From: a bacterium
Lineage (GTDB): Bacteria; Patescibacteriota; Dojkabacteria; SC72
Direction: 5' to 3'
Length of the DNA: 64,000 nucleotides
Assembly (NCBI GenBank): GCA_021463465.1
Contig: JAJTYH010000002.1
Span: 265,799-329,798, forward strand
Every line of letters begins with the position of its first letter. Positions within the stretch are counted from its first letter, which is position 1. This document shows positions 57,001 through 60,000 of this stretch, in pieces. Position numbers: made by a program.

Positions 57001-60000
57001 TGGTGAAGAGTAAGTTATTTATTTCTTTTACTACACCTGTGACCGAATCTTCAGTTTCAAACTCCTTAGAAGCTTCAACATAAAGATCCGAAACGAATTC
57101 CTTCACCCCACGGAAACCATCTGATTTAAGTTTTTCCTCTACCAATGCATAGGCAGAATCAATAACTTCTTGATTCAAGTCACCCACAACAAATTCAGGT
57201 TTTACCTTACTAATCAGGGCATAAAGTGTTTTAGCTACATACGGTCCAATATCACCAAAATAGTTAGCGTGTATTACTTCATAACCTAAGTTTTCGTATA
57301 AGCGCGAAATACTTAAGCCTGTTATAGCGCTCTTTACATGCCCCACAGTAACAGATTTATGTGTGTTAGGCTGACCATACTCCACCATTATCCTTCTTCC
57401 TTGATATTCTTTAGATTGCCCAAAAGTCTCTTTAATTTCTTGCAAACTCTGTTTAAGATAGCTGGAAGAAAGATAAAAATTAGCGAATCCAGGTTTAATG
57501 AATTCTACTTTAGAGACTTTATCGTCTTGGGGAAATTCTTTGGAAATCTGTTCTGCGATTTCAAGAGGATTCCGACCTAATTTACCAGCCATTTTCATGG
57601 CAATCGGGGTTGTGAAGTCGCCAAAACGAGAGTCACCCGTTCGTGAAACGATAACCTCGCTAGGCTCTATATTGAGCACCTTGGATACACCTGTTTGAAT
57701 TAGTTCCTCAATTGACCCTTTGGCATATAAAAACTTTCCAGTACTCATTTTATTCATAGCAGTGTTTTATTAAAATTTAATTCGTTTCAAATACTTACTC
57801 ATAACCATTACCCATCTCTCCTATATCAACCACCTGTATACTATTTTGTTTCACCGATTCAAAAGCAAAAACTCCCATCCCATTATCTAACTATACCACT
57901 TTAGATAACGGGACGAGAGTTTGATTACCCCCGCGGTGCCACCCTGTTTTCGGACTACCGACGCTTTTACTTTCTTCAATTGTAGCGATTGATCACATGT
58001 TGGCTCACAGCTACCCAACTTGCTTGATATGTAACTGATTATAACATCAAATAAATCACAATTACCAATACAACCAAACCTATGACTACTAATCCTACTA
58101 AAAAATTCTTTCTATCATCACCCTTAATTATTTTAAGTGAAGTCTCTTCCTTGTTAATCACTGAGCTTGTATCCGAAGGTGTTACTGCATCTGGTAATTT
58201 AACCTTGCTATCAGGTGTTAGTTCAGGTAAAGGCTGGTCGGGAGCGGTTACATCCGCTCCTACCTTAATCTCATCAATTGGGGTATTTGTTGTTTTCATA
58301 ATAAGCACCTTACATATTAATATACGCGCCCGGAAGGATTCGAACCCACAACCCCTAGTTCCGAAGACTAGTGCTCTTCCAGTTGAGCTACAGGCGCATT
58401 TAAGATGTTCTTAAGTTTTGAAATTACGCTTTCCCAATCGTTTCCATTATACTCTAGAAAGTAGTCAGCCTCAGAAGTAGTTGGTACTTCCATCCTTTCC
58501 TTCTGCTTCTCAATTAGTTTTACCCAGGTTTCCAGCTTACCCTCTTCTACTAACCTTTTATCAGCTTCTATTGCCCTTTTCTCAATCACTTTCATATCGG
58601 GATTAACAAAAATCAATATCGTTTTAACATACTCGACAACATCTTTTACTGCCCCCACCCTCTCCTGTCTATCCTTCTTAATCTGATTACCTGAATCCTG
58701 TATTATATTAACAGCTTTTTTAGCTAAAAACTCTATCATAGTCTTTCTTAACTCATACGTTGCCTCTTGCCTTATTTCATAACTCGTACCATCAACTGTA
58801 TTATCATCTTTAAAAAGATCCATTGTATTCAAAAAATCATGCATCGACCTGGTTTCAACACTCTCGAATTTGCCAGGAAAGCTTCCCTTAATTTTATCGA
58901 CAAGCCAAGTTTTACCTGAAAGCGAATAACCAACTGTAAACAAATAGTAGTACATTCGTTTTGTAACAAGCTAAATTCACGTACCTGGCCGGAATTGAAC
59001 CGACAACCTTTGGTTCCGCAAACCAATGCTCTATCCAATTGAGCTACAGGTACATTCTATGGCGTACCCGGCCGGAATCGAACCGACAACCTACTGCTTA
59101 GAAGGCAGTTGCTCTTCCTATTGAGCTACGGGTACACAACGCAGCATTATATCTTAATAACCCTTATTCTTACAATTGTTTCTGGGATCTAATTAGATTC
59201 ACTATCTCCATAGCTTTAGACTCTGATACATTCAAACCAGTAGGTAAATTCACAATCATTTCGGATGTTTTTTCCGCCACAGGACATGAACCTTTTATAT
59301 ATTTCATTTTCTGTAGATTAGTTGCTTTTGGAAAAACTACAGGACAAAACCATTTATCATAAAAAGGATATCCTAACTGAGCAATTGATCCAATTAATCT
59401 ATCAACATATTCCTTACTTTCAGGAACATAAGGATAACGAACCAATGGCCCTGACAAATTTAACCCTAGCTCTCTCGAGTATAACTCTGTTAACTGCTTT
59501 CTGTGTGACAAAAGGATATTGATCGACGCTAAGCAGTCTACGGCAACCCTTGCCAAAACCTGAGTAATATCCTTTACTGTAAGGTTTAATCTTGCGCCTT
59601 GATTTTCAGAAACTGAAAAACCTGATTTAAGCAAACCTATTCTCTTTAAAATCCAAACAACTCCCGATGTAAATGGTTCAGGCACCAACCGAATACATCT
59701 CCAAAGCATAGGATTTATCATCCATTTAAATGACTCCCACCTTGATATTGGCTTAATCTCAGAGTATTCGTCTACTACCCCCGCAATTAATTCAGGATTA
59801 TTCACAATCAAAGCCCCTCCTACCCTAGTTGGCAACATTTTTTCAATACCAAAGCTGAGCATTGTAGCATCACCCCAGTTACCCACATCAGTATTGCCAA
59901 GTGTATGTGCGCAATCCTCTAAGACCCAGATTCCTCGTTGCTTACAGAAATCAATAATCCGCTTGTCAGCCAAAACCCCAAAAGTATGCTGAAGGATAAG

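Follow-up and report, generated by a model that had tools for sequence, protein, structure and literature searches.

An unusually reduced T-box leader upstream of the arginyl-tRNA synthetase gene in a Dojkabacteria genome

Can a T-box leader that has too little room for a canonical Stem I still be a tRNA sensor? The question is raised by a stretch of 64,000 nucleotides (the window) from a bacterium of the lineage Patescibacteriota; Dojkabacteria; SC72 (GenBank assembly GCA_021463465.1, contig JAJTYH010000002.1, positions 265,799 to 329,798), in which a structured RNA (58031-57866) lies on the minus strand between the stop codon of an 89-aa open reading frame (ORF) (58041-58039) and the ATG of argS (57757). 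The argS gene (55955..57757, minus) encodes an arginyl-tRNA synthetase (ArgRS) of 600 aa with the Pfam domains Arg_tRNA_synt_N, tRNA-synt_1d and DALR_1, and its closest named homologues are the arginine--tRNA ligases of Candidatus Dojkabacteria, a candidate-phyla lineage. Coordinates below are those of the window, and the leader features are on the minus strand. An earlier note, made from the sequence alone, had described the region as a T-box leader in which an antiterminator competes with a terminator, and that description held up. Judged by sequence comparison, the argS leader is a genuine T-box switch, though an unusually reduced one; the decisive evidence is comparative, namely the conservation in relatives and a covariance model from which the window was excluded. 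Very likely it is a transcription-attenuating, arginine-specific riboswitch that controls argS and probably also the gene for a tRNA-binding domain behind it.

The T-box core and its conservation in related loci

The antiterminator (57910..57944) is made of helix A1 (GGG, 57944-57942, with CCC, 57912-57910), the 7-nt bulge UGGCACC (57941-57935) and helix A2 (GCGGGGG, 57934-57928, with CUCUCGU, 57919-57913), and this core was aligned to the Rfam T-box family RF00230 with a posterior probability near 1. The intrinsic terminator (57861..57920) has arms at 57920-57901 and 57890-57871 that form 20 bp with three G-U pairs, and its 5' arm takes in the 3' strands of A1 and A2, so that the two structures are mutually exclusive. 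Both were present as the earlier note had listed them: the arms CUCUCGUCCCGUUAUCUA and UAGAUAAUGGGAUGGGAG pair over 18 bp including exactly three G-U pairs, can be extended to 20 bp and are followed by UUUUUGCUUUUG, the U-tract being UUUUUGCUUUU (57871-57861). The calculated energies were -28.9 kcal/mol for the terminator and -10.6 kcal/mol for the antiterminator, and the whole leader folds more stably than its shuffles (z = -5.08). Upstream of the antiterminator, Stem III (57950..57961, UCGG-UAGU-CCGA, followed by AAACA at 57949-57945) falls in the high-posterior part of the Rfam alignment. Together with the purines before it, this stem gives AAGCG-UCGG UAGU CCGA-AAACA (57966-57945), which is the RRRNG-Stem III-AA motif described for T-boxes (PMC7778990). 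In an alignment of eight leaders the antiterminator is invariant and 94.6% paired, and the terminator is 91.8% paired with compensatory changes in its distal part, compared with 29-49% in slid controls; Stem III is kept in the relatives (84% paired). The motif GGTGGNACCRCG is enriched in the window, with 5 matches against 0.32 expected.

The bulge also fits the tRNAs of the locus. Four tRNA-Arg genes lie in the window, with the anticodons CCU, UCG, GCG and UCU, and all four have G as the discriminator base; the C of UGGC (57941-57938) is complementary to this G73, and UGGC can pair with the tRNA 3' end GCCA. The match that the earlier note had pointed out is thus real, yet it is not strictly diagnostic. 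The bulge reads UGGU in the related loci L029, L030, L031 and L037, and since the tRNA-Arg(UCU) of L030 still has G73, a G-U wobble seems to be tolerated in this family.

ArgRS homologues of 56-63% identity and their flanks were examined for a similar leader. A short form like that of the window was found 5' of argS in seven distinct loci (L025/L026/L035, L029, L030, L031, L033, L034 and L036), and a long form in L037 and L039, which makes nine related loci in all with ArgRS 41-63% identical to that of the window. The expectation that the elements would be conserved upstream of argS in related genomes was thus borne out. The leader was absent 5' of argS in the close relative L027/28 and in all more distant genome representatives; an ArgRS search of genome contigs gave only relatives of at most 44% identity, none with a T-box motif 5' of argS, and a pattern scan of metagenome contigs returned only the contig already known as L025.

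The covariance models gave a divided answer. At its curated gathering threshold Rfam reported no T-box match for the leader, and with relaxed filters the RF00230 match had an E-value of 1.1e-4 in a 681-nt search and 0.011 over the whole window. Only the 3' half, consisting of the purine string, Stem III, the T-box and the antiterminator, was aligned with confidence, and the Stem I part fell in the upstream ORF at low posterior probability. When the leader alone (57900-58036) was given to Rfam, no Stem I was found and the 5' hairpin was forced onto Stem II, again at low posterior probability. A covariance model built from the leaders of seven relatives, with the window excluded, found the window leader at full length (57866-58034, minus) with 124.1 bits and E=2.3e-22; its next matches were the two other T-box leaders of the window, with 29.9 and 22.2 bits. 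Every T-box leader met in candidate-phyla sequences (window, L004, L037, L038 and L039) scored 29.6-69.2 bits against a gathering threshold of 93, the argS leader having the lowest value and the others 35.9-69.2 bits, and because of such scores routine annotation misses tRNA-sensing regulation in these reduced genomes. In L004, a Saccharibacteria contig, two T-box core motifs (GGTGGTACCGCG) stand 142 nt apart at 822 and 964 (plus strand); they may form a tandem T-box and are not 5' of argS.

A Stem I platform that appears to lack the proximal stem

The first structure of the leader is a hairpin (57994..58031) consisting of helix P1 (CAUAU, 58031-58027, with AUGUG, 57998-57994), a bulge on the 5' side only (CAAGCAA, 58026-58020, resembling an AG bulge and with invariant AGCAA), helix P2 (GUUGG, 58019-58015, with CCAAC, 58003-57999) and the 11-nt loop GUAGCUGUGAG (58014-58004), in which AGCUG..AG with a UGNRA T-loop motif is invariant. 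All short leaders begin in this way, with (U/A)AGCAA, a 5-bp helix, a loop (A/G)(C/U)AGCUGNRAG and the return strand, enclosed by a P1 of 5-6 bp. In the leader alignment the platform helices are 89.5% paired and 6 of the 11 pairs have changed on both sides, whereas slid controls gave 22-47%.

The identity of this hairpin was read from the long forms. L037 and L039, whose ArgRS proteins are 46% and 41% identical to that of the window and fused to a B3_4 domain, are aligned by Rfam over the whole model (50.7 and 47.6 bits, respectively). In both, the element UGUAGCAA-helix-ACAGCUGNAAG takes the place of the model's AG bulge ('uacAGAGA'), distal helix and distal loop of 11 nt ('GgUUGGUGaaA'); written out, the two motifs are UGUAGCAA-AUCGGG-ACAGCUGUAAG-CCUGA and GAUAGCAA-AUUAGG-ACAGCUGAAAG-CCUAA. 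The window hairpin bears the same invariant letters. It has been reported that the AG bulge carries AGCGA or AGAGA motifs, that G, U, G and A are conserved in the apical loop, and that the two together form a double-T-loop platform which stacks on the tRNA elbow (PMC11404447). Since Rfam puts the same motif of L037 and L039 on the AG bulge and distal loop, the window hairpin (58031-57994) is assigned as the distal platform of Stem I, and neither as a specifier stem nor as Stem II. The earlier note had expected a short Stem I, given some 95 nt between the ORF stop and the antiterminator. The distance was confirmed (about 94 nt), and there is indeed no canonical long stem; however, Stem I is not simply short, because the platform is kept and it is the proximal 5' strand that is missing.

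In the long forms, which are about 70-90 nt longer than the window leader, the platform is followed by a further helix, a specifier loop with AGUA in its 5' strand and GAA-specifier-G in its 3' strand, a base helix and Stem II with an S-turn. No conserved 5' partner strand for a proximal Stem I was found in the short leaders, and neither a K-turn nor the AGUA/GAA S-turn was recognised there; the K-turn is already weak or absent in L037 and L039. Rfam alignments of the window leader showed no match to Stem II or the IIA/B pseudoknot (F-box), the only possible S-turn remnant being GAAGAAAGUAA. Most T-boxes have Stem II and the pseudoknot, but glyQS lacks them, so they are not obligatory for the family. 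The linker UACAAUUGAAGAAAGUAAAAGCG (57962..57984) of the window contains a conserved ACAAUUGAA and, 5' of Stem III, the purine string AAGCG (57966-57962), and its conservation was seen in several leader alignments. Compared with Stem II of L037 and L039, ACAAUUGAA is a probable remnant of the S-turn strands (GAAGAAAG / AGUAA); the window UUGAAGAAAGUAAAAG resembles both of these strands with the helix deleted. The short leader thus appears to lack the K-turn, the 5' half of the specifier loop (AGUA, S-turn), Stem II and the pseudoknot, and it looks like a deletion derivative of the canonical long T-box that persists in more distant relatives.

This leader seems to have its own promoter. An extended -10 element, TGTTATAAT (58038..58046, minus), overlaps the TAA stop codon (58041-58039) of the 89-aa ORF, and a TGnTATAAT box stands 3-7 nt 5' of the first helix in 9 of the 10 leaders; the corresponding site reads TGATATAAT, TGGTATAAT or TGATATAGT in L029, L030, L031, L033, L034, L036, L037 and L039. 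Further 5' the loci have unrelated DNA: L030 and L031 have a tRNA-Arg(UCG) gene whose end is about 10 nt from the box, and at the other loci there are different ORFs. L037 and L039 have the box as well, 5' of the base of their full Stem I. The sigma-70 scan did not list the box of the window because it has no -35 match. As the box is conserved directly before the hairpin and the sequence 5' of it is unrelated, the short RNA probably starts at P1, with transcription beginning at about 58032-58030. The view taken in the earlier note, that no promoter separates the leader from the 89-aa ORF and that the two may be co-transcribed, found no support in this comparison.

Specifier, tRNA ligand and rival readings

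With the conserved UACAAUUGA as anchor, the leaders line up at a triplet 5-7 nt 3' of P1 that reads AGA in each of the seven short relatives. In the window it reads CGC (57985..57987, minus), at a distance of 6 nt from P1 and essentially in single-stranded RNA. The window triplet was assigned by this alignment. The canonical specifier loops of the long forms read GAA-AGA-G (L037) and GAA-CGC-G (L039), so that the candidates of the window, the short relatives and the long forms are all Arg codons 5' of argS. Specifier and Stem III are 23 nt apart in the window, compared with 17-22 nt in the relatives. The genome uses CGC rarely (2.7 per 1000, against 15.1 for AGA), and in the T-box database TBDB specifiers tend to be little-used codons, with CGC (0.52) and AGA (0.24) as the two commonest Arg specifiers (PMC7778990, Table 1). 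CGC is favoured because it stands at the AGA site of the seven short relatives, because both codons are used in the clade and are the commonest Arg specifiers in TBDB, and because the change AGA -> CGA -> CGC passes through Arg codons only. We regard CGC (57987-57985) as the probable specifier, with good though not full confidence, which implies tRNA-Arg(GCG) with G73 as the ligand.

Of the two triplets between which the earlier note had hesitated, CGC and the AGA of a downstream GA-AGA-A, the former is thus preferred. The downstream AGA (57973..57975, minus) occurs only in the window, L025 and L029, and is replaced by AAA in L030, AUA in L031 and L036 and AAU in L034. The 7-nt hairpin loop in which CGC had been placed does exist in the sequence, as does GA-AGA-A, but the mini-hairpin UCAAU-CGCUACA-AUUGA stacked on P1 has only -1.0 kcal/mol and no counterpart in the relatives. 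With the specifier kept unpaired, the summed energy of such hairpins over eight leaders was -1.7 kcal/mol, no better than the -1.66 +/- 1.5 kcal/mol obtained with shuffled flanks. Other candidates were rejected as well. UAC-A as a Tyr-like specifier fails because the UACA after the Arg triplet is unconserved in L025, L033 and L036; the triplet after UUGAA is GAA, GAA, AAA, UAU, UAC and so on across the leaders and does not encode Arg; and a closing helix that would join the 5' end to the conserved UACAAUUG 3' of the specifier forms perfectly in L029 alone and is missing from the window, L025, L033 and L036.

The tRNA-Arg(GCG) gene (58979..59054, minus), about 1 kb upstream of the leader, has an anticodon complementary to CGC, G73 and no encoded CCA, and this isoacceptor rather than another is the likely ligand. 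The gene set does not explain the change from AGA to CGC, because relatives with an AGA specifier (L027, L030, L035) also have tRNA-Arg(GCG). In bacteria the usual counterpart of this tRNA is a tRNA-Arg with an ACG (inosine) anticodon. In this clade the GCG gene always adjoins a tRNA-Arg(UCU) gene (window 58979-59054, minus; L027 1723-1798; L030 302-377; L035 11160-11235), and of these two genes in the window only the UCU gene has an encoded CCA end. In L036 a tRNA-Arg(UCU) gene (2394-2470) separates argS from the terminator of its AGA-specifier T-box, so this riboswitch would control the gene of its own ligand along with the synthetase. A sub-threshold Rfam match to YrlA (Y RNA-like) over two adjacent tRNA-Arg genes of the window (58998-59115, minus; 37.4 bits against a gathering threshold of 69) is almost certainly an artefact of tRNA-likeness.

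From these parts a conventional mechanism can be proposed. Transcription would start from the leader's own extended -10 promoter, right at the first helix, and by default the 20-bp terminator would form and RNA polymerase would stop at the U-tract (57871-57861). When uncharged tRNA-Arg builds up, its anticodon would pair with CGC (57987-57985), the UGGC of the antiterminator bulge would bind the free 3' end (G73-C-C-A) by base pairing, and stacking on the elbow platform would probably add to the binding. This pairing, together with Stem III and the flanking purines, would stabilise the weaker antiterminator, the 5' arm of the terminator would be sequestered and argS would be transcribed; charged tRNA would be unable to stabilise the antiterminator. 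Both the tRNA binding and the tRNA-dependent read-through are what we infer for this leader.

The same T-box could instead use the downstream AGA (57975-57973), read by tRNA-Arg(UCU), with CGC as a drifted former site. AGA is the main Arg codon of the genome and the specifier of all short relatives, though at the other site; a tRNA-Arg(UCU) with G73 and an encoded CCA is present, and the minimum-free-energy fold pairs CGC and leaves AGA in a small loop, AUU-GAAGAA-AGU. Yet in L030, L031, L034 and L036 the downstream triplet does not encode Arg and so is not the specifier site of the family, it lies 11 nt from Stem III where the relatives have a specifier spacing of 17-22 nt, and CGC serves as a canonical specifier in L039, while a drifted triplet would encode Arg by chance in only about 6 of 64 cases. 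This alternative is considered improbable. Slightly more weight, although still well on the unlikely side, is given to the view that the leader reads the tRNA at its anticodon and 3' end only, and that the 5' hairpin is kept for protection of the mRNA 5' end, for co-transcriptional folding or for a protein partner and stays off the elbow. Hairpins at the 5' end stabilise bacterial mRNAs in general, and this one might do no more than that; the platform stands on a stem of just 5-6 bp, and no rigid ruler connects it with the specifier any longer. T-boxes with an ultrashort Stem I are known to work without a platform (PMC7583486), and two of them lie in the same window. However, these platform-less T-boxes rely on Stem II (PMC7583486), which is absent here, and the invariant letters are exactly those of the AG bulge and distal loop, which a mere stabilising hairpin would not need. 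In L039 the specifier is 11 nt away from the helix that carries the platform (2-nt hinge, 6-nt helix strand, 3-nt S-turn), and in the short forms 5-7 unpaired nt lie between P1 and the specifier. P1 with this tether in extended form could span a distance similar to the roughly 11-nt helical strand of the long forms, so that a joint hold on one tRNA is geometrically plausible. The platform may then still contact the elbow. Such a leader would be a working transcriptional T-box in which the rigid 'molecular ruler' of Stem I is replaced by a platform on a stub of 5-6 bp and a codon on a flexible single strand, without K-turn, S-turn or Stem II; we hold this fuller picture tentatively, with a little less than even confidence.

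Two further readings are very improbable. A longer leader, co-transcribed with the 89-aa ORF and with a long Stem I overlapping it, would agree with the global Rfam alignment (58111-57906), which spans the whole model from 58111, and with a -10 box that has no -35 partner. That part of the alignment has low posterior probability, though, the full Stem I of the long forms lies 3' of the same box, and it is the box and everything 3' of it that is conserved while the DNA 5' of it is non-homologous among relatives. Equally remote is the idea that the T-box has decayed, has lost its tRNA sensing and serves only as a constitutive or otherwise controlled attenuator. The sub-threshold Rfam score and the loss of several canonical modules would suit it, whereas the platform motifs, an Arg codon, UGGN, the purine string and Stem III have all been kept at 56-63% ArgRS identity while the spacer from terminator to start codon has diverged until it is barely alignable.

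Against the T-box reading set out here, with CGC as specifier, several points must be counted. With relaxed filters RF00230 gave the leader 29.6 bits against a gathering threshold of 93, the comparison comprised only 10 distinct leaders, and the antiterminator helices, being invariant, offer covariation neither for nor against it in eight leaders. The specifier has no S-turn or closing helix to pre-organise it, and joint reach of one tRNA to platform and specifier across a stem of 5-6 bp and a tether is only geometrically plausible. Its alignment is ambiguous by 1-2 nt, as the 2-nt length difference falls at slightly different places in the MAFFT alignment and in that of the covariance model, and the base after it is U in the window and three relatives where canonical T-boxes have a purine. 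The predicted fold of the window leader also pairs CGCU with AGCG (57965-57962), so that in the isolated leader the specifier is expected to be mostly paired, with a probability of being unpaired of 0.02-0.1. This helix (57984-57987 / 57962-57965, minus) has only -2.0 kcal/mol and is peculiar to the window, the relatives having AGAG; the pairing may be due to chance or be a self-masking of the specifier. Finally, transcriptional T-boxes are reported generally to need a long, platform-bearing Stem I, and Stem II is thought to be dispensable mainly for the strong Gly GGC:GCC pair (PMC7583486).

Neighbouring genes and relation to known T-boxes

The argS gene is followed after 18 nt by an ORF of 118 aa (55580..55936, minus) with a tRNA_bind domain (Pfam PF01588, Trbp111/CsaA-like). 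A tRNA_bind-domain gene also follows argS in L025 and L031, and the one in the window probably shares the T-box-controlled transcription unit with argS. A tRNA-Pro(CGG) gene lies directly 3' of it. On the other side of the leader, a small ORF with a hydrophobic C-terminal segment and no Pfam match is found in three loci (window 58039-58308, minus, 89 aa; L029 109-417, 102 aa; L033 1966-2169, 67 aa). Between terminator and argS start there is a poorly conserved spacer of about 100 nt (window 57758-57866, minus, and its equivalents in L025, L029, L030 and L031), in which GUGGAAC after the U-tract is kept in L025 and L029-31. A second conserved motif of the spacer, UAAAUUUAG, stands 10-17 nt 5' of the argS start codon and also before the start of trpS in the window (44283-44310, minus), and no Shine-Dalgarno-like sequence was evident upstream of genes in the window. 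Several ArgRS proteins of the Dojkabacteria type, of about 860-890 aa, have at their N-terminus a B3_4 domain (PF03483), which is known from the beta subunit of PheRS (P0008, P0009, P0011, P0012, P0014 and P0020, from loci L033, L034, L037, L038 and L039).

With the canonical RF00230 type, such as tyrS of Bacillus subtilis, the window leader shares UGGN in a 7-nt bulge, helices A1 and A2, an exclusive intrinsic terminator, Stem III with RRRNG...AA, a specifier matched to the amino acid, the AG bulge with the 11-nt distal loop, and the aminoacyl-tRNA synthetase context. It differs in that the stem between platform and specifier is cut to 5-6 bp with a single-stranded tether, and in that Stem II and IIA/B are missing. 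The closest known type is glyQS (glyQ(S) of Bacillus and Oceanobacillus). The two are alike in acting on transcription, in having neither Stem II nor the pseudoknot and in their purine-rich single-stranded linker to Stem III, and the GGC:GCC helix of glyQS is all G-C like the proposed CGC:GCG helix. However, the long Stem I of glyQS is complete, including K-turn, S-turn and hinge, whereas the window leader has neither the K-turn nor the proximal stem, and the short-form relatives do without Stem II despite a weaker AGA:UCU pair. The ileS leaders of actinobacteria with an ultrashort Stem I (Mycobacterium ileS) share the truncated Stem I, the small size and a specifier outside a long-stem internal loop. 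They are translational and drop the platform while keeping an essential K-turn and Stem II/IIA-B (PMC7583486), which is the opposite of the argS leader; the specifier of this class sits in the terminal loop of a short, K-turn-based Stem I. With a platform and a terminator, without K-turn and Stem II, and with a hairpin around CGC that is neither conserved nor stable, the argS leader does not belong to it. To the long forms L037 and L039 it is tied by (U/A)AGCAA - 5-6 bp - ACAGCUGNAAG, the ACAAUUGAA linker, the placement of the -10 box, the Arg specifiers and the discriminator domain, although these, unlike the window leader, still have a Stem II with S-turn and the proximal part of Stem I (base helix, AGUA, GAA-specifier-G).

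The window contains two further sub-threshold T-box leaders, at 44352-44531 (minus, trpS) and 53596-53774 (minus, proS), with 63.3 and 35.9 bits against the threshold of 93. They have a K-turn and an ultrashort Stem I with the specifier in the terminal loop (AGAA-UGG-G and U-CCC-A), keep Stem II/IIA-B, lack an elbow platform, and are each followed by an intrinsic terminator. They are a transcriptional use of an architecture described mainly for translational T-boxes of actinobacteria, and their route of reduction is opposite to that of the argS leader. The TrpRS of the window (42777-44282, minus) has an N-terminal aminoacyl-tRNA editing domain (tRNA_edit, YbaK-like), an unusual fusion for this enzyme.

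In the literature searched, no paper linked T-boxes with the Candidate Phyla Radiation, Patescibacteria or Dojkabacteria, which is no proof of novelty. As far as sequence can tell, the reduced architecture appears to be new and the regulatory logic familiar, and what has been said about function is to be read in the same light. T-boxes are a model for the recognition of one structured RNA by another, and current models stress a rigid Stem I that measures the distance from anticodon to elbow, a K-turn that places Stem II, and a Stem II that aids weak codon-anticodon pairs. A family of argS leaders that has kept the platform and the discriminator domain, and does without the proximal stem, the K-turn and Stem II, lends itself to finding out which parts are needed, and the change of specifier from AGA to CGC within one clade, beside the genes of both matching tRNAs, offers a clean pair for the study of isoacceptor selectivity. 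If the proposal is true, platform, specifier and discriminator can act as loosely tethered modules, and the question left open in a review (PMC7583486), whether any T-box works without a K-turn, would be answered. Together with the trpS and proS leaders, it would then mean that T-boxes have been minimised by two opposite routes within one lineage of reduced genomes.

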